Positions 10,754 through 51,994 of a stretch of 64,000 nt of DNA are shown here, in pieces (positions within the stretch are counted from its first letter, which is position 1; every line of letters begins with the position of its first letter). The translations under genes and the position numbers were made by a program. Below the pieces are notes generated by a model that was given only the letters and a program-made list of their open reading frames with translations, had not been told where the DNA came from and searched no databases. The stretch lies in the IMG/VR virus record IMGVR_UViG_3300027260_000002, one strand, 5' to 3'. The stretch is from a virus. Taxonomy: Duplodnaviria > Heunggongvirae > Uroviricota > Caudoviricetes.

Positions 10754-11563
10754 ATGCAAGCACCGTATTTTTTTGAAGGCATAGTAGCAGAAGATCCAAC
10801 ATCAGAACTCGGGCTTGGAGCTGACGAACCTCAAATCGGAAGAGTATTAGTAAGAGAAATTTTAGGTCACTCGAACCAAGTTTCATCAGACGATTTATTA
10901 CCGGCTCGCATCATCATGCCTCCAACAAGTGCTGGGACAGCAGGTATAGGATTAAGTCCGACTGGACTGCTTAAAGGCACGCGCGTGATGTGTATGAAAT
11001 TCCCTGACGAGAATGCATCATATGTAATAGGTGTATTAAATTATGCAGCTGAAGGCAATCACAGTGTATCTTCATATGCTCGTGGTCAAGGTGAACCAGA
11101 AGAAAAAACTCAGAATCGAATTAAAACTGATGATGGTTTCTACGTTGAACCAGAATCGAAGTATAAGGCGAGATATCCTTATAATAATACCATGACTACT
11201 CGCAGCGGTCACTTAGTAGAGTTCGATGATACTCCTGGATCAGAACGTGTACAGGTTTATCATAAATCTGGATCTTATCTTGAGATTTTACCAGATGGAA
11301 CCATCGTGACAAAGTCAGTAAAAGATCATATTCAATTAGCCTCAGGCAACATGACAATTTTTAATGTCGGCGATGAGAAGGGAGATAAGAATATTGAGAT
11401 CACATGTAATCAAGGTAAGATTACTATTACTGCGCAGTCAGATGTCGATATCTATGCAAATGAAGGCAACGTAGGAATCTATGCAAATAATGGCAGCGTG
11501 CAAGTTGTATCACAATCAGGCGCGGTGGATATTAAAGCTGCAATTGTTGGAATCAATGCATGA
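10754..11563 (+). CDS. gp5: Baseplate central spike gp5 (OB-fold plus short beta-helix, no lysozyme domain)
   Basis: FFEGIVAEDP...GRVLVR...IMPPTSAG..GIG.SPTGLLKG; YPYNN..TTRSGHL.EFDDTPG.ER..YHKSG.Y.EI.PDG. Only 269 aa. Confidence 0.88.
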   Translation: MQAPYFFEGIVAEDPTSELGLGADEPQIGRVLVREILGHSNQVSSDDLLPARIIMPPTSAGTAGIGLSPTGLLKGTRVMCMKFPDENASYVIGVLNYAAEGNHSVSSYARGQGEPEEKTQNRIKTDDGFYVEPESKYKARYPYNNTMTTRSGHLVEFDDTPGSERVQVYHKSGSYLEILPDGTIVTKSVKDHIQLASGNMTIFNVGDEKGDKNIEITCNQGKITITAQSDVDIYANEGNVGIYANNGSVQVVSQSGAVDIKAAIVGINA

Positions 11564-13515: not shown

Positions 13516-13944
13516 ATGACAGACAGAATAGATGCACTGACAACAAGGAAAACAACACAGCGTGATCCTGTGTTCACTGACTTCTATAACAATTTTAATA
13601 TTCATCCTCAGAACAAGAGACTTGCTCTCTATACCGATGAGCAAGCTGTCAGAAGATCGATGCGGAATATTTTATCGACCAATACAAAAGAACGTTTGTT
13701 TAATCCAGAATTTGGTGGTGGACTTCGTAGATTCTTATTTGAAGATATTTCTGTCATGACAGCCGACTTAATGAAAGACGCTATCAAAGAGTCTATCGGT
13801 AAATATGAGCCAAGAGCGAGAGTAGTAGATGTGTTAGTAGTGTCGAATGAATTCGCCCATTCTTACGACATATCAGTCTATTACGAGATCATAAATAATG
13901 CTAATCCGCAGACACTTCAACTCACCCTTTATAGAGTAAGATAA
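13516..13944 (+). CDS. gp25: Baseplate wedge subunit gp25
   Basis: AVRRSMRNIL.T...ERLFNPEFGGGLRRFLFE...I.KYEPRA. Confidence 0.92.
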   Translation: MTDRIDALTTRKTTQRDPVFTDFYNNFNIHPQNKRLALYTDEQAVRRSMRNILSTNTKERLFNPEFGGGLRRFLFEDISVMTADLMKDAIKESIGKYEPRARVVDVLVVSNEFAHSYDISVYYEIINNANPQTLQLTLYRVR

Positions 13945-21616: not shown

Positions 21617-24049
21617 ATGGCAGTAACTCAAAAACTCATTACGAGTAGTTTTAATGTAGCGGCAGCTGCAAACTTCATGAATAGCTTTGCTAACAATGAT
21701 TACTTTGTGTATGCCGCTCGTCATATTCCTTATGCTAACAGCGACACGATTATTCCTGTTCCGAATAATAGCATTCGTGATACAGACACGAACGTCTATG
21801 ACAATATGATCTTCGCGAAGAGAATTTCTTCTGATGATGTAGTTCATATGGCGAAAAAGAATCTGTGGGAATCAAACACACACTATGCGATGTATGATCA
21901 TCTTGACGGCGATCTTGAAACCAAGAACTTCTTTATCACTGTCGACGACGATACAGAGTACAACGTTTGGAAGTGCTTGTTCAACAAAAGCACTGATACT
22001 ATCAATGTAAATTCGACTGTTGCACCTTCTCGTGTAGGTAGTGCCGCCGATCTCAATCCTGTCGAAACAGGTGACGGATATGTATGGAAATACATGTACA
22101 CCATCACAAAATCTCAGTATGAAAAGTTTGCTACTTCGCAATACGTTCCTATCATTGCCAACACCTCGGTCATTGATGGCGCTACTCGAGGAACGATTGA
22201 AGTCATTAAGGTAGAAGATCCTGGTGCAGGTTATGACAACTATATTGCCAGTGCCACACTCTTAACAGCCGATATCACCGTACAAGGTATTCCTACATTT
22301 TATGGTGCACCAGCAACTGCAGTATCGATCGATGACTACTATCAAGGTTGTGTCATGAAGATGACTTCGGGTCTTGCTATCGGTGAGTATCGAAGAATCG
22401 TTAACTATGAAGGCACTTCTGCACAGAAGAAATTTATTCTTGATTCCTCGTTTATTAATACTCCTTCTGCTGGAGATACTTATGAAGTATATCCATATGC
22501 ATTCGTTTGGGGAGATGGCGAAGAATCGACTCCCGCAGAAGGAATTGTATATATCGATGCGGCATCTACAAATTCCGTGAATAGAGTCGAATTGCTAGCG
22601 GTAGGAGAAAACTATCGAAAGGCTGAATCATATGTTTCTGAACAGCCTATTACTATTCCTCCATCTATTTTCGACGAAACATTTATTCAGCTTCCACCGG
22701 TCGTATCAAGCTCTACGTACTTTGCACCAGCATCATTGCGTCCAATTATTTCTCCAAAGAATGGCCATGGCTCAGATCCTTACAATGAACTCTTTGCAAA
22801 AAGAATATGCATCAGCGCCAAGTTTAATAACAGCGAGAGCGGTATCATTTCAACAGAAAATGATTTTCGACAAGTCGGAGTAATTAAGAATCCGACCTTT
22901 ACAAAGGTCGATATGAATATCAACAATGTAATTGGACCAGGTTTTTCTGTTGGTGAGAAAGTCTATCAATATAGAAAGTTAAAGCTGCACGGCAACGTTT
23001 CAATTACAGCAGCTAGCACGACGATTGAAAAGACAGACTTCGGCCTTCTTTCGACTACTGCTACTATTGTAAGTGGTGGAACAGGATACAATAGCACTGC
23101 GAATAATCAACTCGTCTTTAACAATTCTGGAACTGATGGAACAGGTGCAGCAGGCACATTCGCAAATAACGGTTCAGGAGTTATTACATCTGTTACAATT
23201 ACTAACGCAGGTTCTGGATATACTTCAGCTCCTCTCGTTACGATCAACGGAGATGCAAGTGTATCAGGATCGAACGGAGTTATTACTGTAGCTCTTAGAA
23301 ATCCAGATGCTCCTACTTACAAAGATGCCTTTGAAGTTGGCGACTATGTTCTTGTCACAGACGGTTCGAACAACTATATCTCGACAGTAGCCAACGTTCC
23401 ACAAGACTATCGTATTACGACTGCAAATACCAACAGCTCGTTTACGGCAGAAGATTGTGAAGTGTCAGCTATCGTCGTAGAAGCGAGCGGCATCGTATCG
23501 TTCTCTGGATCAAGTCAAATTGAATTGTCAAATGTTGCAGGAGTATTTACTTCTGGAAGTCGTATCATCGGTGTTGGTGGTATGTCAGGAGACACCGTAG
23601 TTCCTGTGTCGGGTACGACAGCATCTATTACTGGAACGATTGAAATCAACGACAGAGTAGCGAGTTCATTCAACTACTCTCGCCAGCTAACTCGATTGAT
23701 TGGCACATTTAGCACCGGCGGAGTACCGTTCCTCGAAGACGAAGAGATTAAGCAAGAAAGTCTGATTTCATATGCGCAGCCGCGCGGCAGAGTCCACCAT
23801 CTCGATGAGATCGACGGCGCTTCTGATATATTGTGGATTAGTAATAAATCAGGCATCTTTAACCTTGATGCGCGTGGAGTCATAGATATCGCAGGAGTAG
23901 TATCTTCTGCAGAGCTTTCCCCATTATTGAATAAATACAATGGAGACTTTGTAGTCGGTAGCGGCGAGGTTCTTTACTTAGAGAATCTTGATCCTATCGC
24001 TCGTAACGATAACAAATCAGAAATTATAAAGATAGTATTGGAGTTTTAA
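21617..24049 (+). CDS. gp8: Baseplate wedge subunit gp8-like (with insertions)
   Basis: DNMIFAKRI...W...T.Y.MYD....FF..V....YNVWKCLFN...DGYVWKYMYTI...KF....YVP; GHGSDP..EL; ENDFRQVG.IKNP; C-terminal GEVLYLEN..PI.R...SE.IKIVLEF. Confidence 0.85.
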   Translation: MAVTQKLITSSFNVAAAANFMNSFANNDYFVYAARHIPYANSDTIIPVPNNSIRDTDTNVYDNMIFAKRISSDDVVHMAKKNLWESNTHYAMYDHLDGDLETKNFFITVDDDTEYNVWKCLFNKSTDTINVNSTVAPSRVGSAADLNPVETGDGYVWKYMYTITKSQYEKFATSQYVPIIANTSVIDGATRGTIEVIKVEDPGAGYDNYIASATLLTADITVQGIPTFYGAPATAVSIDDYYQGCVMKMTSGLAIGEYRRIVNYEGTSAQKKFILDSSFINTPSAGDTYEVYPYAFVWGDGEESTPAEGIVYIDAASTNSVNRVELLAVGENYRKAESYVSEQPITIPPSIFDETFIQLPPVVSSSTYFAPASLRPIISPKNGHGSDPYNELFAKRICISAKFNNSESGIISTENDFRQVGVIKNPTFTKVDMNINNVIGPGFSVGEKVYQYRKLKLHGNVSITAASTTIEKTDFGLLSTTATIVSGGTGYNSTANNQLVFNNSGTDGTGAAGTFANNGSGVITSVTITNAGSGYTSAPLVTINGDASVSGSNGVITVALRNPDAPTYKDAFEVGDYVLVTDGSNNYISTVANVPQDYRITTANTNSSFTAEDCEVSAIVVEASGIVSFSGSSQIELSNVAGVFTSGSRIIGVGGMSGDTVVPVSGTTASITGTIEINDRVASSFNYSRQLTRLIGTFSTGGVPFLEDEEIKQESLISYAQPRGRVHHLDEIDGASDILWISNKSGIFNLDARGVIDIAGVVSSAELSPLLNKYNGDFVVGSGEVLYLENLDPIARNDNKSEIIKIVLEF

Positions 24050-33879: not shown

Positions 33880-35589
33880 ATGTCAGGCGCAAATAATAGA
33901 TTTAAGGTTGATAACGGTCTAGTTGCTTCTGGCAACGCGATCTTCTATGATCGTGTCGACGTAGAAGCCAACGCGCACTTTAAAAACGACTTGTTTGTTG
34001 TATCTGGTAACCTTGTAGTAAATGGTTCTCTTGTATACGCCAACGTTACCATCGGTCAAGGCGGGGTTCTTCTGATTGCAGATCAGCAGCCACTCGGTAA
34101 TACTTCAAACCGTTTCAATGCTTTCGTATTTAATACGACATCTTATGGAACACTACGACCAGATGCAAACGGCGGCGCACTCGGTACTACCACGGCAAGA
34201 TTCGATGTCTTTGCAAACAATATCACCGTTACGAATACTGTTAACTTTCCAAGTGGAGCAGGCGTTAACTCGTCACTTTATACTGGTACAGCAAGCAATG
34301 CTAACACCGTATATAATATCTCGGCGAATGGTATCGTAGTCAGAACTGGTACAGGAACAGGTAATACGGTATCGATTGCTTCTACGAACGGCATTAGCGT
34401 AACAAACGGCGACGGGGTTTCTGGAAATCCGACGATTAGTTTCGTAGCGAATGCTGGTTTAACTGTGAACGCAGCAGGCGTATTTGTTGATGCATCTGCT
34501 ATTACTGTCGGTACACTTCCTACATCTCGAGGCGGTACAGGCGGATCGATCAATAACCTTCTACCTACACAATCTGCTGGAACAACAGGTTTCGTTCTTG
34601 CATCAAGTGGAGCGACAGCTAACTTGGTGTGGACGCAACTTGCTGGACCTCAAGGTGCGCAAGGCGCAACTGGTGCTCAAGGCTCTCAAGGTGCAACTGG
34701 TTCGCAAGGACCAACTGGTGCTCAAGGCGCAGCTTCGACAGTTCCTGGTCCACAAGGCGCGCAAGGAATAACTGGTTCCCAGGGTCCACAGGGAACAACT
34801 GGTTCTCAAGGACCACAAGGACCTTCGGTTCAAGGACCGACGGGACCACAAGGTGCACAAGGTATTCAAGGACCACAAGGACCACAAGGAACAACTGGTG
34901 CACAAGGTGCTGCTTCAACCGTTGCCGGTCCTCAAGGCGCTACTGGAGCTCAAGGACCACAAGGACCAACTGGTCCGCAAGGTCTTACAGGTGCACAAGG
35001 TGCAGCATCTTCAGTTGCTGGTCCTCAAGGTGCTCAAGGATTACAAGGCGCTCAAGGTGCAACTGGTTCGCAAGGACCAACTGGAATAAACGGAGCACAA
35101 GGTGCAACTGGTGCTCAAGGCGCGGCAGGTTCAACGGGTGCTCAAGGACCACAAGGTGCACAAGGAAGTGCATCTGGTGCCGTAGCTCCTATTCTCAGAC
35201 ACGTTACAGCTGGATTTACAAGTGGTGGTCAAGTTTTCGTAACAGGTTCTACACCTACTGCTTCTGCTGCTGGTGATATCTGGATCGATACGGCAGGAAC
35301 TACGGGATATACACAAAGTCTGTCATCAAATGGCTGGACTAAGTTGCCAAACGGAGCAATTATTCAGTGGGGAACAGTAACTGTTACTCCGAATACTACA
35401 GGATCTGGAACGTTCCCAACATCATTTACTACAGTCGGTCGAGCAGTGATGAATGGAGTAGGAGATCTGGGTGTATTTGGACAGGCTTCTAAAGGCGCAA
35501 CCATTTATAGTGTATCAACAACTGGTTTCAGTTGGTTTAACGGAGATGAAACTTCTCACACTGGTTACTGGTTAGCAATGGGATATTAA
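33880..35589 (+). CDS. Collagen-like tail fibre with C-terminal tip domain
   Basis: N-terminal NRFKVDNGL; a Gly-X-Y run; C-terminal [16 protein letters not shown]...GTFPTSF tip motif. Followed by a fibre chaperone gene. Confidence 0.85.
34645..35175 (+). repeat. Collagen Gly-X-Y repeat ([12 protein letters not shown]), roughly 55 triplets with short interruptions ([21 protein letters not shown])
   Basis: Directly visible in the translation and as 9-nt periodic DNA. Confidence 0.92.
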
Positions 35590-39015: not shown

Positions 39016-39861
39016 ATGGCAAACAAATTTCAATTTAAGCGTACGACAATTTCTGGTCGTACAGCTAATACTACTGACGTAGCAAATTCCGGTTTTATTG
39101 ATAACGGCGAATTTGCGGTTAATCTAACTGATCGTAAAGTCTTCTCTTCAGATGCTGCGAATGCCATCTTCGAAGTCGGTTCAAATCTCTCCTCTCTCGC
39201 TGTTACTACGATTGTCGCCAACGGTTCTTCAGGCACCGCGGGACAAGTTCTCACGTCAAATGGATCGAGTGTTTACTGGGGAGTAGGAGGCGGTGGAGGC
39301 AATACATATGCAAGTATTGCAACTTACACCTACACTATCGCTTCGAATACCACCGTCATTACTGGAGCAGATGATAATACAGATGTTCTTTCTTATACTG
39401 CTGGACTCGAAAGCGTATACCTGAACGGTTCGAAGCAAGTCCTTACAACAGATTACTTGGCAACAAACTCTGGTGCCATTACATTCACTTCAAACGTATT
39501 TGCTGCTGACGTCGTAGAAATTGTTTCTGTGACTCCTCAGCTTTCTGTTATTGTCGCAGATTCAAACACTCGAACAACAAACACCACATCAAATACTACA
39601 GTCGATTCTTTTAGTGCCGCTAATTATCGATCTGCTAAATATTATGTACAAATCACTTCGGGTACTGACTATCACGTGACAGAAGTTTTGCTTATTCATG
39701 ATGGTACAGAAGTTTATATTACTGAATACGGCACAGTTTATTCAAACACATCACTCGGCAACGTAAGTGCAAATATTAATACTGGTTATGTAGAGTTGCT
39801 CGTCGCTCCTTCCAATTCAGCGAGTACAGTAAAAACTCGCCGTCTTGCGATAGAAGTATAA
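39016..39861 (+). CDS. Virion structural protein (Mtd-N-like N-terminus; C-terminal domain paralogous to that of 31817-33871)
   Basis: FQFKRTT.SGR....I..GE.A.NL.D.K.F; VYLNG.K...DY.AT; YRSAKYYVQI....YHVTEVLLIHDGTEVYITEYG.V. ATG 39016 preferred over 39010. Confidence 0.7.
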   Translation: MANKFQFKRTTISGRTANTTDVANSGFIDNGEFAVNLTDRKVFSSDAANAIFEVGSNLSSLAVTTIVANGSSGTAGQVLTSNGSSVYWGVGGGGGNTYASIATYTYTIASNTTVITGADDNTDVLSYTAGLESVYLNGSKQVLTTDYLATNSGAITFTSNVFAADVVEIVSVTPQLSVIVADSNTRTTNTTSNTTVDSFSAANYRSAKYYVQITSGTDYHVTEVLLIHDGTEVYITEYGTVYSNTSLGNVSANINTGYVELLVAPSNSASTVKTRRLAIEV

Positions 39862-39864
39862 ATA
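39857..39864 (+). promoter_or_regulatory. T4-type late promoter
   Basis: TATAAATA 30 nt upstream of the 1064-aa fibre gene. I saw no further consensus promoter before the GT60-like gene. Confidence 0.78.
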
Positions 39865-42800: not shown

Positions 42801-43088
42801 ACTCTTAACTGTGTTGCTTCTAACTTCTGGGATCTTACACTTACTGGAAATACAACCATCTCTCCAACAGGTGTTCCACCGGCTACAAGAATGTGGGCAG
42901 GAACGATCGCCGCGAAGCAAGATGCAACAGGAGGTCGTACGATCACATGGCCTACAGGATCGAAGTATCCTGGAGGAGTTGCTCCTCCTGCAACGACAAC
43001 TGCGAATGCTATCGACATCTGGTCACTTATGACTTATGACGGCGGTACTTCTTGGATTGTTTCTCTGACGGTGAAGGGCGCCGCATAA
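39894..43088 (+). CDS. Long tail-fibre-like protein with ABAB internal repeats
   Basis: N-terminal NFRVKNGL; repeats ATN.TSGTV..AR.P...NTS.....AN.VKTAYDAA (fibre-repeat-like); C-terminal QDATGGRTITWP....YPGG..P..T..AN.ID...L.TYDGG..W. Confidence 0.78.
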   Translation: MATPNNFRVKNGLTAANGVTVTTGNVVISNGQLVINGTAINSTSISQSANNAYANGVNYADGKASDAYGNAVAVATGSSTNAYNNAVAFAANADNLTTGTLSLNRLPATVNVSVALNVTNTVNISTSNLTVSQANDVATLTGTQLAITDSLTETGNTYYAEISHDELITSKTYVVANVTYADYGQMSRTGMFAVVGLNTTNNSIYVRGVTVNTSVIAIGNTTVSSFINSTAFSGNGASLTSVNAATVGGNSASDLRTYAETYASNATNITSGTVNSARLPSANDTTAGAVILVNSVTNTSITAAASANSVKTAYDAAIAANTAGGTAAATAYSNGVTYTDNKAANAYSNAIAIAANATNLTSGTVNIARIPTVDAVNNTSITLIPVANNVKTAYDAAITANTNAASALANAATAYTNAIAIAANATNLTSGTVNAARLPSANATVAGATLLVDSVSNTSPTAAASANSVKTAYDAAIDANTRATSAQTAATSAYSNAVTYTDTKIGTANTAMVANAGAAYTNAIAIAANATNLTSGTVALARLPTVDAINNTSITLIPVANNVKTAYDAAITANTNAQTALTAAGSAYSNGVTYTDTKIGTANTAMVANAAAAYTNAIAFAANASNANNGTLAEARLPYRMDQNLRTTDSPTFANGSFTGSVSVGGSLTITGNLISTNVQTLSVADPLIKLAVNNPSDLLWIGFTGHYSGSGNTTNHAGLVRSPDTKEFILMSTYGDETAVANNNTINVADASFSYANLQVSLLKAGNATVFSTINSTAFSQTANNATNLGGQAAAYYTDATNISTGTLPFARLPSLFIGTTAIQSTSAAQAVSGITTLAAGNTTITGNISVTSVGSFDRITTANNGSGTNIGIGDDAWFGDINQADTVSIRGNQSANNGYIVFGNADSTTKLGRAGTGALTYNGAFSVTGGLTTLSANLVMANNNITNPTLTGYTESEVSNTAVTGTYTLNCVASNFWDLTLTGNTTISPTGVPPATRMWAGTIAAKQDATGGRTITWPTGSKYPGGVAPPATTTANAIDIWSLMTYDGGTSWIVSLTVKGAA
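40689..41810 (+). repeat. Four alternating (A-B-A-B) coding repeats plus a degenerate fifth start
   Basis: Units begin at about 40689, 40962, 41166 and 41481. A units read ARLPSA...AAASANSVKTAYD; B units read AR(I/L)PTVDA.NNTSITLIPVANNVKTAYD. Confidence 0.8.
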
Positions 43089-44968
43089 TGAGTATTGGTG
43101 GTGGTTCAAAGTTTACATTAGAGAAAACGTGGCGTGGAGCTGGAACTGGAACGACTAAGTTTAACAGTCCAGGAAACATCGCGATTCCTTATGGTAGAAA
43201 CAGCGTTCTTGTTTCTGGCCGAGGTGGCACAGGAACTGCACTCGTTCCTGGTCCTGGAACCGGCAACTTTAACATTGTAGCAGGTAATGCCACTGGAACG
43301 TTTAACGTAATTCCTGGTAATGCCACTGGCACTTTCAATATCGTACCTGGTAATGCGACTGGTACTTTCAACATCGTGCCCGGAAATATTGCCAACTACA
43401 ACATTATCTTTCCTCAGACCGGTACATTCAACATCATATTCCCCGGAACCGGTGTGTATAACATCATTCCTGGTCCTGGAACTGGCACCTTTAACATTGT
43501 GCCAGGAAATTCCACTGGTACGTTTAACATCGTTCCAGGAAATGCGACCGGTACGTTTAACAAAGTTCCTGGCACTGGCGTTAGTTTCAATATCGTTCCA
43601 GGTAATGCGACTGGTACATTTAACATTGTAGCTGGTAATGCCACTGGTACTTTCAATATCGTACCAGGAAATATTGCTAACTACAACATCATTTTCCCAG
43701 GAACTGGCACCTTTAACAAAGTTCCAGGTAATATCTCTGGTTACAACATCATTTTCCCAGGAACAGGTACGTTTAACATCGTTGCTGGAACAGGAACAGG
43801 TACGTTTAATAAAGTTCCTGGTCCTGGAACTGGCACTTTTAATATTGTGCCAGGAAATTCCACTGGTACGTTTAACGTTGTTCCAGGCAACGTGTCAGGA
43901 TATAACGTCGTTCCAGGTAACGTGGCAGGATATAACGTCGTTCCAGGTAACGTGGTAGGTTATAATGTCGTGCCAGGTACCGGCACAGGCAATTATAATG
44001 CTACTCCGGGCAATAAAGCTACCAATGCATTTGTCAGTCCAAAATATGGATATACACCGGCTTTTTATAATGCTCCATCTCCTGGGCCTCAGAACTTTAA
44101 CGCGCCTTCGAATGGTCCTGCAAACTTTAATGCTCCTTCAAATGGTCCAGCAAACTTCAATGCGGCTAGCAACGGCCCAGCAAACTTCAATGCGGCGAGT
44201 AATGGTCCTGCAAACTTTAACGCTGCAACGAACGGTCCTCAGAATTTCAATGCACCGACTAATGGCCCTCAAAACTTTAACCCTGCTACCAACGGTCCTC
44301 AAAACTTCAACGTAGCAAACGGTCCAGCAAACTACAATGCACCTACTAACGGTCCTCAAAACTTCAACGTAGCAAACGGTCCAGCAAACTACAATGCTCC
44401 GACTGGAGGTCCTCAAAACTTTAATGCACCTACAAATGGTCCTCAGAATTTCAATCCTGCTACCAACGGTCCACAAAACTTTAATGCACCAACCAATGGT
44501 CCTCAGAACTTTAACCCTGCGACTAACGGGCCTGCAAACTTTAATCCAGCTACCAATGGTCCTCAAAACTTCAATGCACCGACTAATGGTCCACAGAACT
44601 TTAACGTAGCAAACGGTCCACAAAACTTTAACGTAGCAAACGGTCCAGCAAACTACAATGCACCTACTAACGGTCCACAAAACTTTAATCCTGCTACCAA
44701 CGGTCCACAAAACTTCAATCCTGCAAACAATGGGCCTCAGAACTTTAACCCTGCTACCAACGGTCCTCAGAACTTTAATACACCAACTCCAGCTGTTCCT
44801 GGAAATCCATCGAATACGCTTGGTATTACTTTCCCAGGATCAAATGCTGGGGGCACACCTGCACCAGTAATAAATAGTCAGACGGCAAGTTACTATGCTT
44901 ATCCCGACGGAGCTACGCATTCGGTAACTGTAGCGCCCGGAGGATATATAGATATTACCATTGAATAA
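43088..44968 (+). CDS. Fibre-associated Gly/Asn/Pro-rich protein: small split domain enclosing two mirror-related repeat arrays
   Basis: True start is probably ATG 43088 (TAATG overlap with the fibre gene). N-terminal TTKFNSPGNIAIPYG..SV.VSGRGG and C-terminal GITFPG..AGG...VTVAPGGYIDITIE look like two halves of one Gly-rich adhesin-type domain. Confidence 0.85.
   Translation: MSIGGGSKFTLEKTWRGAGTGTTKFNSPGNIAIPYGRNSVLVSGRGGTGTALVPGPGTGNFNIVAGNATGTFNVIPGNATGTFNIVPGNATGTFNIVPGNIANYNIIFPQTGTFNIIFPGTGVYNIIPGPGTGTFNIVPGNSTGTFNIVPGNATGTFNKVPGTGVSFNIVPGNATGTFNIVAGNATGTFNIVPGNIANYNIIFPGTGTFNKVPGNISGYNIIFPGTGTFNIVAGTGTGTFNKVPGPGTGTFNIVPGNSTGTFNVVPGNVSGYNVVPGNVAGYNVVPGNVVGYNVVPGTGTGNYNATPGNKATNAFVSPKYGYTPAFYNAPSPGPQNFNAPSNGPANFNAPSNGPANFNAASNGPANFNAASNGPANFNAATNGPQNFNAPTNGPQNFNPATNGPQNFNVANGPANYNAPTNGPQNFNVANGPANYNAPTGGPQNFNAPTNGPQNFNPATNGPQNFNAPTNGPQNFNPATNGPANFNPATNGPQNFNAPTNGPQNFNVANGPQNFNVANGPANYNAPTNGPQNFNPATNGPQNFNPANNGPQNFNPATNGPQNFNTPTPAVPGNPSNTLGITFPGSNAGGTPAPVINSQTASYYAYPDGATHSVTVAPGGYIDITIE
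43268..43999 (+). repeat. Array A: 24 units of 10-11 aa, consensus GT(F/Y)NIVPGNAT
   Basis: Counted by hand from the first FN core (TTT 43268) to the last YN core (TAT 43994). Confidence 0.92.
44096..44779 (+). repeat. Array B: 24 units of 9-10 aa, consensus GP(Q/A)N(F/Y)N(AP/PA)TN
   Basis: Counted by hand from TTT 44096 to TTT 44774. One extra YNAPSP half-unit sits in the hinge. Confidence 0.92.
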
Positions 44969-44989
44969 GTGATTTGATAAGGATTTACT

Positions 44990-45583
44990 ATGCCATATAA
45001 TATCCCTAAGTATGGGAAACAATTGAACTGCTTCGCTGTATGGACAGGAGGATTTACTCCTGAAGAAGTCGATATGATTATCGACTTAGAAAAACTTCAA
45101 CAATTTGAAAAAGGTCAAGTTGGGCTCGATAAGAATGCTCCAGCTCCTGCTGAAACGCGAGATTCAGATATCTCATGGATACACCATGATCAACACAGCG
45201 ATTGGTTATTTCAGCGAATGTCAGGAATCGTTTCTGTCGTAAACTACGATAATTTTATGTATGACATCGAAGGCGTCGAAGCTTTTCAATACACAAAGTA
45301 CGGACCAAATCAACACTATACGTGGCACTGGGATGTCGAGTTCGGTTGGCAGAAATATATAAGAAAGATATCTGCATCTCTACTTCTTTCGGATCCAAGT
45401 GAATATGAAGGTGGAGAGTTAGAGATTGTAAACAACGGAAACTTTGAAGACAAAGTTTCGTTTAAACCGAATAAAGGTGATATCGTATTCTTCGCTTCAT
45501 GGATGCCGCATCGAGTGAAGCCAATTACGTCAGGAACTCGTAAGAGTCTTGTAGCATGGGTAATGGGTGAAAGAGAATGTTGA
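44990..45583 (+). CDS. 2OG-Fe(II) oxygenase, prolyl-4-hydroxylase/PKHD-like
   Basis: FQYTKY...HYTWHWD (HxD)...RKIS.S.LLSDP.EYEGGEL...GD..FF.S..PHRV.P.T.G.R.SLV.W (distal His and 2OG-binding Arg). Confidence 0.9.
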   Translation: MPYNIPKYGKQLNCFAVWTGGFTPEEVDMIIDLEKLQQFEKGQVGLDKNAPAPAETRDSDISWIHHDQHSDWLFQRMSGIVSVVNYDNFMYDIEGVEAFQYTKYGPNQHYTWHWDVEFGWQKYIRKISASLLLSDPSEYEGGELEIVNNGNFEDKVSFKPNKGDIVFFASWMPHRVKPITSGTRKSLVAWVMGEREC

Positions 45584-46314
45584 GTTGGAATCCTTTTAAG
45601 AAGAAACCTATCATTGAGTTTTATTGCCATCGTGATGATGTAGCTACATTGCCGCAACCAAAACCTGCAGCTAAACATATACCCGATTGGTATAAGAGAA
45701 TTCCTCCTCTTATTACAGATGGGAATAATGATCGTGACTGGTCTGGATCACACAGTTTTACTGCAAAAAAATGTATGCCAATGATAGACGCCATGTCATT
45801 AGGTTATGTTATTCCTCTTATCGGCGACTTGACAGTCAGATCAAATCACGATTGCAGTACGATTGAAGTGACATCTTCTCCACAGATCAACGTATGTGAG
45901 TTTCATGACATTCGACAACTGGGAGAAAGATCTGCTCCAGGATTTCCTGCGCCTCCTCTCAAGTTTGTCAATCCATGGATCGTAAAGACTGCTCCGGGTT
46001 GGTCTACTCTTTTCGTAGCACCGATTAATAACTTTGAAAGTCATTTTACTTGTCTGTCAGGATTAGTCGATACTGATACGTATCCAAAGGAAGTCAATTT
46101 CCCTGCAATCTGGCATACTCCAAATGCTGACGTACTTCTACCAGCTGGAACTCCATTGATAGTCGCAATTCCAATTAAGCGCGATGCTATCCCATCAAAG
46201 CCTACGGTAAGAGATATGAAAGAACCAGAACAACACTTGATCAATCTCATATCGAAGATGCAAAACACACGCCGAGGTGTATATACAAAAGAACTGAGAG
46301 TACCAAGAAAATGA
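45577..46314 (+). CDS. Conserved phage hypothetical protein (DUF6065-like, possibly dUTPase-like beta fold)
   Basis: P.PA.K.IPDWYK...T.KKC.P..DAM..GY.IP...KF.NPW..KT.PG.S.LF..P...SG.VDTD.Y...NFP...GTP....IP.KR. Confidence 0.65.
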   Translation: MLSWNPFKKKPIIEFYCHRDDVATLPQPKPAAKHIPDWYKRIPPLITDGNNDRDWSGSHSFTAKKCMPMIDAMSLGYVIPLIGDLTVRSNHDCSTIEVTSSPQINVCEFHDIRQLGERSAPGFPAPPLKFVNPWIVKTAPGWSTLFVAPINNFESHFTCLSGLVDTDTYPKEVNFPAIWHTPNADVLLPAGTPLIVAIPIKRDAIPSKPTVRDMKEPEQHLINLISKMQNTRRGVYTKELRVPRK

Positions 46315-47051
46315 AAGATCTGTTTTCTTTTTTAAAACCAAAGAAAGATATTCAATTCGTAGACACTAAAAAGTTATCTTATCATAACTTTTCTGTCGAA
46401 CGCGCCGTTGACGTTCCAACAAATACTCGTAAAGTCCAACAAGACAAGTATGGCAAACATCTGATGCCATACTGTCCTGGAATTTTAGATTATGCCCAAT
46501 TTGGGTATATCATTCCAGCTTGGGTAGACATTCATATCATGGCAAATAAAGCTGGCACTTCTTGGTATTTGGGTGATAGAGGCCCAAGAGGAGATCGTGG
46601 TTTTGACAATGGCGTGAAGATGGATGAAAAGTTTGTAGAAGGCGCATTTACTCCGATTGGAATTAATCCTACTGCAATCTTGTTTCCATCGCCTTGGAAA
46701 ATCTTTACACAAAAAAACATCAGCGCGTTGTTAATGCCTGCATTCTATCATTCTACTTTCCTTGAAGATTTATATGTAACCCCGGGTTTGGTAGATTATA
46801 AAAACTTTCATATCACAAACTTCATCTGTATGCCGAAGAGAGAATGTAATGTTCATATTAAGGCAGGAGATCCTTTGTTACACGTGATTCCTTTTCTCAA
46901 TAAGGATATCACTGCTTCTGTTGGTCCTGCTACTGATGAGATGATAGATAAAACTACAAATCTCATTCCTGGTGACGATAAGCAATACTATCGAAAGTTT
47001 ATGGGAGTGAAAAAGAAATTTAATATGCAAAAAGAAGAGAATAAACAATGA
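46311..47051 (+). CDS. Paralog of the preceding gene
   Basis: CPGI.DY...GYIIP.W...FPSPWKI.T....S.L..P...PG.VD...NF...GDPL..VIPF; same motif order as 45577-46314. Confidence 0.62.
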   Translation: MKDLFSFLKPKKDIQFVDTKKLSYHNFSVERAVDVPTNTRKVQQDKYGKHLMPYCPGILDYAQFGYIIPAWVDIHIMANKAGTSWYLGDRGPRGDRGFDNGVKMDEKFVEGAFTPIGINPTAILFPSPWKIFTQKNISALLMPAFYHSTFLEDLYVTPGLVDYKNFHITNFICMPKRECNVHIKAGDPLLHVIPFLNKDITASVGPATDEMIDKTTNLIPGDDKQYYRKFMGVKKKFNMQKEENKQ

Positions 47052-48070
47052 ACATTTTTGTTTCAGTATGCTCGTACCAAGATCCTTTACTTCCTCATAC
47101 TATCAAGAGTATGATGCAAACCAAATCAAATAGAAACAATGTAGTCTATTCGATCTTTGAACAGACGCGTTATGAGGATTCTTTGGCTTGTACAGAACCT
47201 GTACTCGTAAGCAGAGATGATGTCATCTATAAAAGAATCGATCCTGAATATTCCGATGGTTGTGTTTGGGCAAGATATATTAATATGCTAAACTTGACAA
47301 ACGAGTACGACTTCATCTATCAAGTTGACTCTCATATGTTACACGATCTCAATTGGGATCGCTCTCTCGTGGAAGATTATAAGAGAGCGATGGATATGGC
47401 TGGAACAAATAAAGTAATCATCACTGGATCATGCAAATCATTTTCAATAGAAGAAGTAGATGGCGAGATTAAAACTTATCCTCGTCATGATGAATATGAT
47501 GCTTGTCAAGTCAAGTACTACACTATCGATCCTTATAATTTTATTCCAGATGTTCACGGAGATCAGATTCCATCAACTGATATGCCTCGTCCGGCGTTTC
47601 ATATTATGGCCGGAAACTTCTTTACGCATACCGACTGGATCGATGAAGTCGGTTTAGATCCAAAGATCTTCTTTACAGGAGAAGAAATCATGATGACGAT
47701 GATGTCATATGCTGCTGGATATAAGATGTTTCATCATAGTAAGATAGTATCATATCATCTTGAGAACACCGGGAATTGGCATACGAAAACTCCTCCAGAA
47801 GATGCAAAAGCTGCTCGTAGAAGAGAAATTCTTGCTGAAATTGGTGTGTGGAGATGGAAGCAATATCTCGAAGCGTGTAGAGAAGATCTTCTTCTTGAGT
47901 TTCACAAGGAATTCGGAGTAGATTTTATTAATTTGGAAATTGAAGATCGCGCAAAGACTTATAGTCTTGATGTCATTCCTGGTAAAGTTGATATCCTTGC
48001 TATTTCGAAGAAACCAAAGAAGAAAGTAAAATTGCCTAAAACTCTTTTTATGAGTGAAGACGAAGAATGA
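47048..48070 (+). CDS. GT60 / Gnt1-like GlcNAc-transferase (Pfam GlcNAc family)
   Basis: IFVSVCSYQD (cf. IFVSIASYRD), GCVWAR, YQVDSHM...NWD..L (DSH motif), AGNFF...EVGLDPKIFFTGEEI...GY.MFH. Confidence 0.82.
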   Translation: MNIFVSVCSYQDPLLPHTIKSMMQTKSNRNNVVYSIFEQTRYEDSLACTEPVLVSRDDVIYKRIDPEYSDGCVWARYINMLNLTNEYDFIYQVDSHMLHDLNWDRSLVEDYKRAMDMAGTNKVIITGSCKSFSIEEVDGEIKTYPRHDEYDACQVKYYTIDPYNFIPDVHGDQIPSTDMPRPAFHIMAGNFFTHTDWIDEVGLDPKIFFTGEEIMMTMMSYAAGYKMFHHSKIVSYHLENTGNWHTKTPPEDAKAARRREILAEIGVWRWKQYLEACREDLLLEFHKEFGVDFINLEIEDRAKTYSLDVIPGKVDILAISKKPKKKVKLPKTLFMSEDEE

Positions 48071-48077
48071 TATCTTA

Positions 48078-48085
48078 GATAAATA
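48078..48085 (+). promoter_or_regulatory. Late-promoter-like GATAAATA embedded in an 8-bp inverted repeat (48073-48092)
   Basis: TCTTAGAT-aaat-ATCTAAGA upstream of the desaturase gene. Confidence 0.5.
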
Positions 48086-48121
48086 TCTAAGAAAACTTAT
48101 CAATAAAGAAAGCAATGCTCG

Positions 48122-48847
48122 ATGTTCTTAAGGAGCGTAGATAGAACGTATCATCTATTTGTATTACAACTAGCGATGCCTATCATCGCAGTATGGGCAA
48201 CCATAACATATTTTTCATGGCCATGGGTATTAGCTTCCGTAGTCATGTTTTTCCTTATGCGTTGTGTTGGATCTGTGGTAACTTATCATCGAATTCACGG
48301 GCATAGAACACATACGATGCATCCTATCGTAGAGTTTATTTGTACTGGTCTTGGATTTTATGGAAGTATCTCTTCACCAATAGACTTTTGCGCGGCGCAT
48401 GTTAATCATCACAAATACATGGATACAGAGAAAGATCCGCATTCTCCTAAGTATCTTGGATGGAAAGCTATGTTTCCACTCTTTTGGGTAAATCGTCAGT
48501 CCGGAGATCTTCGAACTATTATCAGATTAAGTAAAAACAAGATTACGATGTTCTATCATGATTATTATTGGCCTCTACTTCTTATTCCATTCTTACTACT
48601 TTTTGTATCTCTCGAAGCATTCTTGTTTTTGTTTGTAGTTCCTACAGGGATTTCTTTGTTTACACTTTCAATATCTACTCTGAATCATGATAAAAATGGA
48701 CCAAAAAGAATGTCATGGTGGTATGGAATATTAACAGGTGGAGAACATCATCATGACTGGCATCACAATCATGCAACAGACACGAGCGGAGAAGGCTGGC
48801 TCGATTATGTTGCCAATGCAGTAGGCACAAAAAGGGTTAAAAGATGA
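48122..48847 (+). CDS. Membrane fatty-acid desaturase (delta-9-like, di-iron)
   Basis: Three His boxes: HRIHGH (HX4H), HVNHH..D...DPHSP, HDWHH; hydrophobic transmembrane segments. Confidence 0.88.
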   Translation: MFLRSVDRTYHLFVLQLAMPIIAVWATITYFSWPWVLASVVMFFLMRCVGSVVTYHRIHGHRTHTMHPIVEFICTGLGFYGSISSPIDFCAAHVNHHKYMDTEKDPHSPKYLGWKAMFPLFWVNRQSGDLRTIIRLSKNKITMFYHDYYWPLLLIPFLLLFVSLEAFLFLFVVPTGISLFTLSISTLNHDKNGPKRMSWWYGILTGGEHHHDWHHNHATDTSGEGWLDYVANAVGTKRVKR

Positions 48848-49392
48848 ATATCGTAACTACTACAATTAATGACTTATCAGAAGTCGATTTCGATGATCTA
48901 TACGAGAGATCAAGAGATGCTATCGATGTAAATTGGCCAGCAGATTCTTCTCTTACGGGTGAAGAAAGAAAGGCTAAAATCATAGAAATCATTACGAGTG
49001 GGATTAATAATGAGTGGCCCGGTTTAAATGCTCATAGCCCAAATGATGAGTATTTTATGGCCAAATCTGTAGATACTGATACTAATAAAGTCATGGCACT
49101 AGTATGCGGATATATTATAGATGGAGATACTCATGATGGAAGACATTCACTTGCAGCTGCAGATGAAAATGGTTCAAGAAATTGGCTTTATTCAGAACAG
49201 ACTCGTGCCTCACAAAATCAATATCAAAGAGATAATGGTATAACTAAATTGCTTTTTAGAAATATTCCTACAAATTCTGTTATGCATAAAATTATTAAAC
49301 GCCGAGCAAATGCCGGAGATTATGAAGTTATAGAAGAAACTTTAGGATTTGGAGAAGGTTTTACAAATATAAAAGTATTACTAAATCTATGA
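48844..49392 (+). CDS. Hypothetical protein (weak possibility of a GNAT-like fold)
   Basis: 182 aa with ATGA overlaps on both sides. No firm motif. Confidence 0.6.
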   Translation: MNIVTTTINDLSEVDFDDLYERSRDAIDVNWPADSSLTGEERKAKIIEIITSGINNEWPGLNAHSPNDEYFMAKSVDTDTNKVMALVCGYIIDGDTHDGRHSLAAADENGSRNWLYSEQTRASQNQYQRDNGITKLLFRNIPTNSVMHKIIKRRANAGDYEVIEETLGFGEGFTNIKVLLNL

Positions 49393-50093
49393 AGTTTCTA
49401 TTGAATGTAGGTGCCGAGAAAGCTGGCACTACTTGGTTATATGATTATTTTCGAAACCACCCAGAATTCTATGATATGGGAAAAGAACTCAATATCATTC
49501 AGAGAGATGATTTGGTTCCTATCTTAGAAGACGTAGACGAATATAGAAAAGATATAGAGTCTTTCTTTCGAACAGTTTCAAGTGTAAATCAAGTGACAGG
49601 CGACTTCACACACTATGAAGGCTCGAGCGAAAACGTTTTTCGACTCGTAAAGAATGGCTTACTAAAATATGATATCGAAGTAGTGCCAGTTTATATTATG
49701 CGAGATCCTATTCGCAGAGCTTGGTCCGCTTGGAATTCTCTCGGAGGAGGTAAGATTTCAACTAAATCGACAGCTTCACAGTTTGTGATGACTAATTTTA
49801 TGTCATGCAAATATAGAGAAACGATAGAAGCTCTAGACAATGTTTTTGCCAATCCGCTCTATTTCTTCTATGAAGATTTTTTTACTCAAGACAATATCAA
49901 TAAGATATGCGATGAGTTGCAGATTTCTCATCTGCCGGCAGAATGCGACATCAAAATCAATGCTTCTCCGTATAAGAAAATACCAGACGCTTTCTTGAAA
50001 ACTTTTGGCAAATCTTCGAAGAACGTGACTGCAGTTAAATATATTTTTGAAAGATTTGAAAATGTACCATGGAAACTCGAGGATTATTCATAG
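49389..50093 (+). CDS. PAPS-dependent sulfotransferase family protein
   Basis: 5'-PSB loop VGAEKAGTTWL....HP...KE; 3'-PB motif IMRDPIRRAWS. Confidence 0.82.
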   Translation: MKFLLNVGAEKAGTTWLYDYFRNHPEFYDMGKELNIIQRDDLVPILEDVDEYRKDIESFFRTVSSVNQVTGDFTHYEGSSENVFRLVKNGLLKYDIEVVPVYIMRDPIRRAWSAWNSLGGGKISTKSTASQFVMTNFMSCKYRETIEALDNVFANPLYFFYEDFFTQDNINKICDELQISHLPAECDIKINASPYKKIPDAFLKTFGKSSKNVTAVKYIFERFENVPWKLEDYS

Positions 50094-50655
50094 ATCTACT
50101 GTCGACGAAGATGTTCGCCTAAGATTGCTTGAAGGTTTAAATAGTCCTACGCAAATGCATTACTTTGATCGTAACGAGGCTATGAACGCAACAGACGAAG
50201 CTGTACTCGAGTTTCTCGATAGAGAACAGTTTAACTGTAATAAAACTCACATCGAATATTGGTATCAGTCTCAACAAGGTTCTGGAGATCTGTGGCCTCA
50301 CGTGGACTTTAATGAGAAGCTTCGTTATAGAATTGATGCTGGAGAACAATTAAAACCAGAAGAACTGATGTCTCCAATCACCATCGCATGTTATTTAGAG
50401 GCAACTGATCTTGAAGGCGGAGAATTCTGCATCTCTGAAAGAAGTTGGTTAGACTATGAAAAAGAACTCAACGATCCAGTAGATTTAAAAGAAGAGTTGC
50501 TCAAATATACGCACGAATCTTTTCAACCCTTCGAAGGCGCAGTGTTATACTTCGAGGGCAGTCGATACTATCATTGGATCAACGAAGTCAAACGAGGATC
50601 TCGTAAAAGTATATTGATTAATTTCTGGGATGAGTGTAGCCTTAAGTCCACTTAG
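50062..50655 (+). CDS. 2OG-Fe(II) oxygenase-like protein
   Basis: WPHVD (HxD), I.CYL...LEGGEF, YYHWI..V..G.R.S..INFW. ATG 50062 preferred over TTG 50047. Confidence 0.78.
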   Translation: MYHGNSRIIHRSTVDEDVRLRLLEGLNSPTQMHYFDRNEAMNATDEAVLEFLDREQFNCNKTHIEYWYQSQQGSGDLWPHVDFNEKLRYRIDAGEQLKPEELMSPITIACYLEATDLEGGEFCISERSWLDYEKELNDPVDLKEELLKYTHESFQPFEGAVLYFEGSRYYHWINEVKRGSRKSILINFWDECSLKST

Positions 50656-51394
50656 TTCCATGGCGAGAACTGTATTTTGTTTCAGGATCGTATGCTGCAA
50701 AGTCTTCGTAGCGAGGATCTCCTGGTTCAGCTCGCTTACCGATGCTATACTCACCGATATGATTGACAATGTTATGGCCTTCTTCGGTCTTCAGCTTACA
50801 TGTCTGCATACCAAGTTGCTGCAATGATTTTGCTACAACATATTCGCTCAAGTTCTTCTCGCCTACTGATTCGGCATGAGGAAGATCTACTATGGCGCGC
50901 GGAAAAACACTTGCCAAACTCCAAAAATATGCCTCAGAAAGTTCGCCACGGTATTTTCCAAGTGTAATGTCTGTTTCATAAGCCTGCGTTTCCTCTTCAA
51001 AGTCATACCATTTCTGTCGTGTCAAACATACCTGAGAAACGTTACGATAATCATGTAAGATCTGAGTCATGTCGAGCATTCGAATCGGACAGTTGAATGT
51101 CACATCATCTTCTGACAGATACACATAGTCATAATCTCGTTCTCTTAGCAGTTCGAAGGTTCTATTCCATACGTATGGCAAACCCATATTCTGTTGATGT
51201 AAGAAGATCTCAGTAAAGCCAAAATTCTTGGCCAACTCGAACATCGTGCCATCATGACGACCTTTTGGCATGTCGTCGATAAAGATGCCTTCGACTTCAC
51301 AACCTTCAAAGTTTAACATGTCTCGCTGAGATTTGAGTGTAGGAATCAGATACTCGAGACGATTCGTCGACCATATTACTTTACAAACTTTCAT
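50642..51394 (-). CDS. Glycosyltransferase, GT-A fold (GT2-like)
   Basis: STNRLEYL..TL.S...IFIDD...NMGL...WN......YDYVYLSEDD. Confidence 0.78.
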   Translation of the reverse strand: MKVCKVIWSTNRLEYLIPTLKSQRDMLNFEGCEVEGIFIDDMPKGRHDGTMFELAKNFGFTEIFLHQQNMGLPYVWNRTFELLRERDYDYVYLSEDDVTFNCPIRMLDMTQILHDYRNVSQVCLTRQKWYDFEEETQAYETDITLGKYRGELSEAYFWSLASVFPRAIVDLPHAESVGEKNLSEYVVAKSLQQLGMQTCKLKTEEGHNIVNHIGEYSIGKRAEPGDPRYEDFAAYDPETKYSSRHGTKWT

Positions 51395-51942
51395 CGCGCT
51401 TGCTCCGTATCAAAGAAGAATGTTTGAAACAGACGACCATCATATAGATCTTTACCGAAGTAATCTAAGCTGGCATGGAAGAGATCGCCGCTATAAAGAA
51501 TCAATCGATTGTATTTGTTGCCTACAATATCAATCTTATCCCACTTGGTATAGTCATATGCCTCGTGTTCGTTTGTTGGAGCTCGATACTCGCCTGTTTC
51601 TTTATGTCGAAACATTCCTGTGCCTGCGGTATGTGGTGCATCTGGTGACAAGTAACATACACCAGCCCACATACTCGTATGATCGCAATGGATCCACGTT
51701 CTATCTGAAGCAGTAGCGTATTGAAAAGCACCAGTGTAACCCGAGTCTTCGTGCCAATTGGTAATCTTTCCAATCGGATTCATCCAATGCTGAATGCAGT
51801 CCTTGACATCTTGTGTCATGAACGAAGGTGTTCGTTTTCCTGGATAGTTGCCTGTGACGCTAAAGTCTTGTGTAAGAGCAAAGGCTCTGACCGCGTCGGG
51901 ATTAATATAGAAGTTATCGATAATCATCAAGTCTAAGTTCAT
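51391..51942 (-). CDS. DUF6445-like putative 2OG-Fe(II) oxygenase
   Basis: IIDNFY.NPD.VR..AL....GNYPG.R; WIHCD (HxD); WAGV.YL.P.AP...GT; NKYNRL.LY....FH; GRL.Q.FFF. Confidence 0.75.
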   Translation of the reverse strand: MNLDLMIIDNFYINPDAVRAFALTQDFSVTGNYPGKRTPSFMTQDVKDCIQHWMNPIGKITNWHEDSGYTGAFQYATASDRTWIHCDHTSMWAGVCYLSPDAPHTAGTGMFRHKETGEYRAPTNEHEAYDYTKWDKIDIVGNKYNRLILYSGDLFHASLDYFGKDLYDGRLFQTFFFDTEQAR

Positions 51943-51973: not shown

Positions 51974-51994
51974 TATTTATACGGCTTATAAATA
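51974..51994. promoter_or_regulatory. Divergent late promoters: TATAAATA on the - strand (51974-51981) and the + strand (51987-51994)
   Basis: Both consensus octamers lie between the inverted oxygenase/GT pair and gp13; CATAAATA also occurs at 52003. Confidence 0.85.

Follow-up and report, generated by a model that had tools for sequence, protein, structure and literature searches.

Results

The window, a 64,000-nucleotide stretch of DNA from an uncultured virus of the class Caudoviricetes (IMG/VR record IMGVR_UViG_3300027260_000002; "the window" denotes the whole of this stretch), is shown by PHROG matches to be the structural module of a T4-like myovirus. Within it lies one late transcription unit that comprises, in order, a tail-fibre gene, a gene for a repeat protein, a gene for a 2-oxoglutarate (2OG)/Fe(II)-dependent oxygenase, two paralogous genes of the DUF6065 family (DUFa and DUFb), and a gene for a glycosyltransferase (GT) of the PF11397, or GT60, family (Table 1). 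The repeat gene and the enzyme block that follows it are the subject of this work, and we judge it somewhat probable that together they form a phage-encoded post-translational modification module for the tail-fibre-associated repeat protein.

The gene order had been described in an earlier annotation made from the sequence alone (the original prediction), and it is present as described there, including the 21-nt gap between the repeat gene and the oxygenase gene and the mutual overlaps of the enzyme genes, which amount to 7 nt for oxygenase/DUFa, 4 nt for DUFa/DUFb and 4 nt for DUFb/GT60. The repeat gene is in turn coupled to the gene before it, the TAA stop codon of the fibre gene overlapping the ATG of the repeat gene (TAATG at 43086-43090). 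Exact copies of the T4-type late promoter consensus TATAAATA occur on the plus strand at 38958 and 39857 and then not again until 51987, past the enzyme block, as the claim that no consensus late promoter intervenes after 39857 had implied; because the site at 39857 is the last exact plus-strand site before 51987, transcription from the fibre gene through the repeat gene to the enzyme block probably starts there. Such sites number 10 in the window against 3.1 expected, and a one-mismatch variant, GATAAATA, lies in the 51-nt gap 3' of the GT60 gene.

Table 1. Features of the window by position, with the profile match or other basis of each assignment.
Feature	Coordinates	Strand	Basis
Baseplate wedge proteins	13944-24049		PHROG matches
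Tail-fibre protein with true collagen triple-helix region and gp53-like C-terminal domain	33880-35589	+	PF01391, 4e-22
Large fibre-like proteins	up to 43088		PHROG matches
T4-type late promoter consensus	39857-39864	+	exact match
Tail-fibre protein, 1064 aa	39894-43088	+	phrog_9017 tail fibre, 8.9e-12
Repeat protein, 626 aa (candidate substrate)	43088-44968	+	repeat and domain analysis
PHD/PKHD-type 2OG-Fe(II) oxygenase, 197 aa	44990-45583	+	PF13640 2OG-FeII_Oxy_3, E 2.9e-18
DUF6065 paralog a (DUFa), 245 aa	45577-46314	+	PF19541 DUF6065, 1.3e-11; phrog_7084
DUF6065 paralog b (DUFb), 246 aa	46311-47051	+	phrog_7084; modelled heterodimer partner of DUFa
GT60-family glycosyltransferase, 340 aa	47048-48070	+	PF11397 GlcNAc, E 7.3e-26
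Accessory enzyme island	48122-50655	+	four genes
His-box membrane desaturase/hydroxylase-like protein	48122-48847	+	weak DesA match, 1.7e-7
Unknown protein	48844-49392	+	
Sulfotransferase-like protein	49389-50093	+	
Second 2OG oxygenase, PF13640-like	50047-50655	+	
Convergent pair: 250-aa GT-like protein and 183-aa DUF6445 / 2OG-FeII_Oxy_5-like protein	50642-51942	-	phrog_2456 (weak); DUF6445, 1.4e-14
Neck proteins of gp13/gp14 type, tail-sheath stabiliser, large terminase, sheath, portal	after 52028		PHROG matches

The oxygenase and the glycosyltransferase

The original prediction had assigned the first enzyme of the block to the prolyl-hydroxylase-like 2OG oxygenases and the last to the GT60 type, and profile searches with the two proteins bear out both assignments. 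In the window copy of the oxygenase the catalytic triad (H113-x-D115 ... H175) and the 2OG-binding arginine (R184) are intact; H113, D115 and R184 are invariant among homologs, and H175 is present in all main-line copies, being replaced only in a set of paralogs, termed P4H', which are described below. The solved structures nearest to the model of the protein (pLDDT 89.7) are P. putida PPHD (E 1e-12), human PHD2, Trichoplax PHD and Dictyostelium PhyA (6t8m, 9e-11), followed by PiuC; these make up the top 50 Foldseek neighbours, with TM values of 0.63-0.75. The top structural neighbours whose substrates are known are all prolyl hydroxylases, and the top 50 include no Asn or Asp hydroxylase and no TET/JBP or AlkB entry. 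To judge from the model and the conserved motifs, the enzyme looks like an active protein prolyl hydroxylase, and its fold, taken together with its Pro-rich neighbour, suggests that it would hydroxylate peptidyl-proline.

The glycosyltransferase matches PF11397 with 91.9 bits against a cut-off of 21 bits, over profile positions 94-305 of 352, and the same domain is carried by all of its homologs (114 of 114). Its DxH motif, D94-S95-H96, is invariant in 35 sequences that are 35-89% identical to the window protein, as are H185 and H237. The protein falls in a large, mostly viral PF11397 population. Sequence searches of the PDB, both with the protein alone and with the 35-sequence profile, returned nothing meaningful, and tblastn against phage isolates returned only two distant matches, in Xanthomonas jumbo phages, at 24.6-26% identity; in the one jumbo phage examined, Xoo-sp13, the GT60-like gene adjoins a carbamoyltransferase gene and not this module. 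Two GT60 activities have been characterised, and both are transfers of N-acetylglucosamine (GlcNAc) to protein oxygen atoms, on hydroxyproline (Hyp) in Skp1 and on Thr in T. cruzi mucins. By analogy, the predicted activity of the phage enzyme is the transfer of GlcNAc from uridine diphosphate (UDP)-GlcNAc to a protein hydroxyl, of either Hyp or Thr.

The DUF6065 pair

The two genes between these enzymes had been described as paralogous unknowns, which they are: both match phrog_7084 (1.9e-53 and 1.5e-19), and they are 19% identical to each other. DUFa scores 44.9 bits against the 26.6-bit cut-off of PF19541, and DUFb matches DUF6065 only through phrog_7084 and through a hidden Markov model (HMM) built here (3e-35). 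The original prediction had, however, treated the pair as filler, and in this it was mistaken, for the pair is near-constant in the cassette, more so than GT60. The family is large (2118 clusters at 50% identity, fused doublets included), and a literature search for DUF6065 found no paper. The neighbours of one fused doublet, apparently haloarchaeal, were uninformative, and the contig of another was too short to show any of use.

The DUF6065 model (pLDDT 93.8) has a dUTPase/dCTP-deaminase-like fold. The top 22 rows of the VIA comparison all belong to that superfamily; matches there have Z 10.1-10.7 over 118-133 residues (best Z 10.7, 118 residues, rmsd 3.3-4.2 A), and Foldseek also places dUTPases first (E 2.5e-3); Pfam gave no dUTPase match at E <= 0.1, and the consensus S-G-x-V-D-T-D-x-Y resembles dUTPase motif III by eye only. 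The shared fold is accompanied by differences: DUF6065 proteins are about 100 residues longer than dUTPases and dCTP deaminases, are only about 12% identical to them, and occur as tandem a/b pairs or fused doublets. A dUTPase enzyme would be expected to have five sequence motifs and to form a homotrimer, and the assembly modelled here is a heterodimer. The DUFa+DUFb heterodimer model has an ipSAE of 0.72, a mark that 58 of 80 solved complexes attain, as do 2 of 110 mismatched pairs, against 0.00 for the best control; its runs share at least 77% of contacts and the partner pLDDT is at least 69, values in which a memory effect from dUTPase oligomers is possible. The invariant Cys, Asp, His and Arg residues of both paralogs cluster at the modelled interface.

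Such a fold could be taken to indicate a nucleotide or DNA hypermodification cassette, in which the oxygenase would hydroxylate a base, the glycosyltransferase would glycosylate it and the dUTPase-fold proteins would handle nucleotides, and DUF6065 genes do lie beside thymidylate synthase and DNA polymerase in haloarchaeal viruses. We consider this very improbable, given that the oxygenase is of the PHD/PKHD type and lacks TET/JBP and AlkB proteins among its top 50 neighbours, that the cassette sits in a late structural operon among fibre genes and not in a replication module, that the known acceptors of GT60 enzymes are proteins, and that the constant neighbour of the cassette is the repeat protein. 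It is likewise hard to credit that the DUF6065 pair, and perhaps the oxygenase-like proteins with it, are non-catalytic fibre-assembly chaperones like gp38/Tfa, with no covalent modification taking place. The usual position of assembly factors directly after fibre genes, the oligomeric nature of dUTPase-fold proteins and the modelled heterodimer would all suit such a role, but the catalytic triad and the 2OG-binding Arg are kept in all main-line oxygenases, the DxH motif is kept in GT60, and the interface cluster of invariant DUF6065 residues also speaks against it.

The repeat protein

The repeat protein consists of about 47 units delimited by [FY]-Asn, placed between a conserved Gly-rich N-terminal domain of about 55 aa and a conserved C-terminal domain of similar length (about 55 aa). 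The 23 units of array A are 10-11 aa long and follow the pattern FN-IV-PG-NATGT, and the 24 of array B are 9-10 aa long, with the pattern FN-AP-T-NGPQN; the corresponding periods in the DNA are 33 nt and 30 nt. Proline is present in 44 of the 47 window units and is abundant in every ortholog, Thr or Ser is present in 38 of the 47, and lysine is rare (8 of 626 residues). The count of X-Pro-Gly motifs in array A, given as about 20 by the original prediction, is 21 (VPG 15, FPG 3, IPG 2, TPG 1), while array B has 22 NGP, 45 prolines and a single X-P-G.

Between lineages the repeat interiors differ strongly: in one ortholog a quarter of the residues (25%) are Pro, the units are of the NPPNPG type and [FY]-Asn hardly occurs, and another, from a high-GC lineage, is GNPGN-rich. 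The common denominators of the family are proline and asparagine. Among close relatives the repeat protein is 51-93% identical, compared with 85-99% for the enzymes, a rapid divergence of the kind expected of an exposed or receptor-binding part. The protein is a candidate virion protein, its incorporation being suggested by the position of its gene and by its translational coupling to the fibre gene, and the C-terminal domain of the 1064-aa fibre protein is kept upstream of the repeat gene in relatives. The ESM Atlas gave no usable match for the repeat protein, and a weak match to Extensin_1 (E 0.046) is far below the cut-off.

An antisense open reading frame (ORF) of 190 aa within the repeat gene (44138-44710, minus strand) was rejected as a gene, because it is held open by the repeat composition. 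The collagen-like fibre protein encoded upstream was also considered as a prolyl-4-hydroxylase (P4H) substrate and rejected, since its prolines sit in the X position (G-P-Q), without X-Pro-Gly, and it is therefore not a classical substrate. In one relative (L085:8974-11193) the repeat-protein ortholog carries a Hint/intein-like insert that starts C-F-V-A-G-T-L-V and ends near N-G-V-L-V-G, and the repeat sequence picks up again in the next overlapping ORF (11178-12578), in another frame; from its sequence the insert appears to be an intein or self-cleaving module within a fibre-region gene.

Conservation of the module across phage lineages

The 41 IMG/VR loci of close relatives have the same gene order as the window. 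More distant homologs of GT60 (39-54% identity) led to the contigs of five further lineages, in each of which a PF13640 oxygenase of about 197 aa and two DUF6065-type genes of about 240 aa lie upstream of GT60 and a large ORF lies upstream of the cassette. Alignments of the translated DNA show that in four of the five this ORF belongs to the repeat-protein family, sharing the N- and C-terminal domains of about 55 aa, and the contig of the fifth lineage, found in IMG/VR as L086, has the same pattern. A search of IMG/VR with the N-terminal domain of the repeat protein gave 48 loci, which were scanned with HMMs built here; in 43 of the 44 with enough flank the oxygenase lies at most 3 kb downstream of the repeat gene.

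The repeat protein, oxygenase and DUF6065 genes are adjacent in at least 10 diverged phage lineages, despite duplications, inversions and insertions. The architectures observed (rep, repeat protein; P4H, oxygenase; D, DUF6065) are rep-P4H-D-D-GT60; rep-rep-P4H-D-D-GT60, with tandem repeat genes; a split form, rep-P4H'-GT60-rep-P4H-D-D; rep-P4H-sulfotransferase (Sulfotransfer_2)-D-D and rep-P4H-D-D, both without GT60; rep-x-sulfotransferase-P4H-D-D-GT60; an additional, inverted copy, rep2-x-D-P4H, encoded on the opposite strand in one lineage; a form in which GT60 is fused to a methyltransferase; and P4H-oxygenase-rep...DUF6065 in the high-GC lineage. The invariant core is therefore the repeat protein, the oxygenase and DUF6065, with GT60 frequent and not universal. 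Every context of the GT60 clade that was examined (39-95% identity) has the cassette, and a search of 185,579 species genomes gave a single match to the clade, on a 4.4-kb contig assigned to a metagenome-assembled genome (MAG); this contig reads repC-P4H-DUF-DUF-GT60. The functional link that the original prediction had drawn between the enzymes and the adjacent repeat protein is supported by this persistent adjacency of repeat gene and oxygenase through several rearranged architectures; the co-occurrence across phage genomes that it had proposed as a check holds for the repeat protein and the oxygenase, together with DUF6065, and holds less strictly for GT60, which is present in most of the lineages and missing in two.

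The same evidence bears on the proposal that the enzymes are morons or auxiliary genes of the hypervariable fibre region, whose targets would be host proteins (by prolyl hydroxylation of the EF-Tu type, for example), the host envelope or other phage proteins. The best structural match of the oxygenase is indeed PPHD, a prolyl hydroxylase of EF-Tu, T4-like cyanophages have many 2OG oxygenases to which no role has been assigned (PMC3037559, PMC9301287), sulfotransferase-, desaturase- and GT-like genes lie nearby, and DUFb, GT60 and the downstream island have a GC content of 0.36-0.38 against about 0.44 in the structural genes. Host targets nevertheless seem unlikely to us, because the adjacency of repeat gene and oxygenase outlasts duplication, inversion and reordering, because the genes overlap within a late unit, and because the GT60 clade was not found outside the module in the contexts examined.

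Module copies are also deposited under cellular MAG names, as P0004 (Nitrosarchaeum sp.) and L103 (Chitinophagaceae bacterium, 4.4 kb); these are most likely mis-binned viral contigs and so give no host information. The additional, inverted module of one lineage lies on the minus strand of its locus (L016:11682-16618) and contains a Gly/Asn/Pro-rich repeat protein of the GNAGNPG type, a 101-aa ORF, DUF6065 and a P4H-like oxygenase, and continues with a Cys-rich 152-aa protein and two more proteins of about 200 aa.

Genomic setting and downstream genes

Among isolate phages, the nearest portal proteins, those of cyanomyoviruses and a Stenotrophomonas phage, share only about 53-55% identity with that of the window, and the enzyme/repeat block gave no megablast match among 50,697 phage records. 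The GC content over 46001-50000, which covers DUFb, GT60 and the downstream island, is 0.36-0.38, compared with about 0.42-0.45 in the flanking structural genes, a drop that is compatible with separate acquisition.

The accessory island downstream of GT60 may act on the same repeat-protein substrate. In relatives with 80-98% identity across the other genes, its desaturase-like and unknown genes reach only 46-57%, and the minus-strand pair beyond it lies behind a copy of TATAAATA at 51974-51981. Sulfotransfer_2-type genes are found in or beside the module in diverged lineages as well (L045:5305-5970; L079:10665-11366, PF03567, 4.8e-10; L053:9996-10808), and this recurrence suggests that the product of the module may be sulfated.

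Discussion

The module described here is real and probably new as a protein modification system in phages. The interpretation offered by the original prediction survives in part: the enzyme identities and the link to the repeat protein stand, while the X-Pro-Gly argument and the dismissal of DUF6065 do not. Within a modification pathway, the most likely chemistry, on the analogy of two eukaryotic precedents, would be the attachment of N-acetylhexosamine (HexNAc) to Hyp. The repeat protein would be made late, its translation coupled to that of the fibre gene before it. Across the approximately 47-48 repeat units the PHD-type oxygenase would then hydroxylate residues, most likely proline, and GT60 would attach HexNAc to the hydroxyl so created, as Gnt1 does after PhyA on Skp1; the most likely sugar would be GlcNAc, with UDP-GlcNAc as donor. 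The DUF6065 heterodimer would be a core part of the pathway, as a second modifying enzyme or as a fibre-specific assembly factor, and the downstream sulfotransferase-like and oxygenase products may decorate the protein further, the outcome being a hydroxylated, glycosylated adhesin or stretch of fibre that resembles extensins or mucins.

Several observations weigh against this interpretation. The X-Pro-Gly motif that a collagen-type P4H requires in its substrate is limited to the lineage of the window: apart from the near-absence of the motif in array B, one ortholog with 91 prolines has only 4 Pro-Gly, and in three window units VAG replaces VPG. A collagen-type enzyme therefore does not fit, and the composition of the repeats fits instead a prolyl hydroxylase whose specificity is relaxed or co-evolves. 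In most lineages, moreover, what stays most constant in the repeats is [FY]-Asn, not proline, though in one lineage it is near-absent. By sequence and by Swiss-Prot structure models the oxygenase is nearest to the PiuC/YbiX PKHD-type hydroxylases, which are bacterial, are linked to TonB-dependent iron uptake and have no substrate that we could find in the literature on them; its NCBIfam scores are far below the equivalog cut-offs (64.7 vs 143 bits). GT60 is absent within 5-6 kb downstream in two lineages. DUF6065 occurs in cyanophage isolates and haloarchaeal viruses without this oxygenase or repeat protein, and in the latter its neighbours are those of nucleotide metabolism and replication mentioned above. 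The relatives of the module are all uncultured, the N-terminal domain of the repeat protein having no match in isolate phages, and some of the adjacency could be due to hitch-hiking, given that this hypervariable region holds several 2OG oxygenases in T4-like phages of aquatic habitats.

Alternatively, the repeat protein may be the substrate of a different chemistry, in which GT60 O-GlcNAcylates Thr or Ser directly and the oxygenase independently hydroxylates Pro or, for example, Asn, perhaps to stiffen a polyproline-II-like fibre. The high frequency of Thr or Ser in the units would provide sites for the former reaction; the constancy of [FY]-Asn, and the two lineages in which oxygenase and repeat protein occur without GT60, would agree with the latter. 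Against direct glycosylation stands the split architecture, in which GT60 is paired with P4H', an oxygenase paralog encoded directly upstream of it. In P4H' the distal His that binds iron is replaced by Ser or Ala (WMPSRI or WMPARV versus WMPHRV), while the HxD motif and the Arg are retained (loci L082-L085, L094, L095 and L097; for example L085:12628-13188). To judge from these substitutions, P4H' is probably a hydroxylase-derived pseudo-enzyme that serves GT60 as a substrate-binding partner, and the pairing suggests common site recognition and favours action of GT60 at the site of the hydroxylase. Hydroxylation of Asn is disfavoured by the structural neighbours of the oxygenase, of which those with known substrates are prolyl hydroxylases and none of 50 is an Asn or Asp hydroxylase. 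On balance this different chemistry has an outside chance of being correct.

A bolder form of the Hyp-based proposal, which is possible and which we would put forward only tentatively, is that T4-like freshwater phages carry at the fibre tip a repeat adhesin with dozens of Hyp residues, glycosylated and possibly sulfated, and that the DUF6065 heterodimer is a new type of protein-modifying enzyme. Few "auxiliary" genes of aquatic phages are as abundant as those for prolyl-hydroxylase-like 2OG oxygenases, whose role has been called cryptic (PMC9301287), and earlier proposals for phage 2OG oxygenases have been DNA repair or the drawdown of 2OG (PMC3037559). The module offers a concrete and conserved candidate substrate for such prolyl-hydroxylase-like enzymes, and if the fibre-tip adhesin is real, much of this cryptic P4H/2OG oxygenase gene load would be explained. 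A Hyp-based pathway, if confirmed, would also give the large DUF6065 family a biological setting and would suggest that phage fibres are shielded by glycans or mimic receptors. The pathway is short, and it can be tested by rebuilding it in E. coli, without phage culture.

Comparison with known systems

The separate elements of such a pathway are already known, from virion glycosylation in mycobacteriophages, from the viral P4H of PBCV-1 and from PhyA and Gnt1 in protists. In the literature searched, neither a P4H-GT60 module in a phage nor hydroxyproline-based phage glycosylation is reported, and as far as we have found, the module would, if the proposal is true, be the first case of the latter described in a bacteriophage. 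In mycobacteriophages, phage-encoded glycosyltransferases decorate the phages' own structural proteins (Freeman et al. 2023, cited in PMC12801897); that system differs in using other GT families, in having no hydroxylase step and in targeting the C-termini of capsid and tail-tube proteins in place of a dedicated repeat protein.

The PBCV-1 P4H (vCPH, PDB 5c5t) is encoded by a virus and is thought to act on that virus's own proline-rich repeat proteins, and it gives a weak direct sequence match to the phage oxygenase (E 1.8e-3). PBCV-1 is a eukaryotic giant virus with repeat motifs of the PAPK type, which differ from those of the phage module, and we know of no GT60 or DUF6065 linked to its P4H. 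The hydroxyproline-rich glycoproteins (extensins) of plants and algae, taken together with the O-GlcNAc-modified T. cruzi mucins (GT60 on Thr), offer repetitive Pro/Ser/Thr-rich rods in which many sites are modified by P4H and then by glycosyltransferases; these pathways differ from the module in being secretory and in using other glycosyltransferases (Hyp-Ara/Gal), and their products have no real homology to the repeat protein.

The closest parallel is the Skp1 pathway of Dictyostelium and Toxoplasma, in which PhyA hydroxylates a proline and Gnt1, a GT60 enzyme, then adds GlcNAc to the hydroxyproline. There, and in Pythium, a PHD-type 2OG oxygenase of the cytoplasm likewise works together with a PF11397/GT60 transferase, PhyA is among the solved structures nearest to the phage oxygenase, and the fusion of hydroxylase and GT60 in one protein in Pythium is echoed by the P4H'-GT60 pairs of the phage relatives. 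A scan of 17 window proteins between 29.5 and 51.9 kb turned up no Skp1 domain, the rest of the window lying outside the scan, and the candidate substrate is unrelated to Skp1. The phage module is distinguished from the protist pathway by its occurrence in a bacteriophage, by the two DUF6065 genes between its enzymes, and by a candidate substrate of about 47-48 repeat units that would offer potentially dozens of sites in place of one; if the proposal is true, it extends the cytoplasmic PhyA/Gnt1 pathway of protists to the viruses of prokaryotes.

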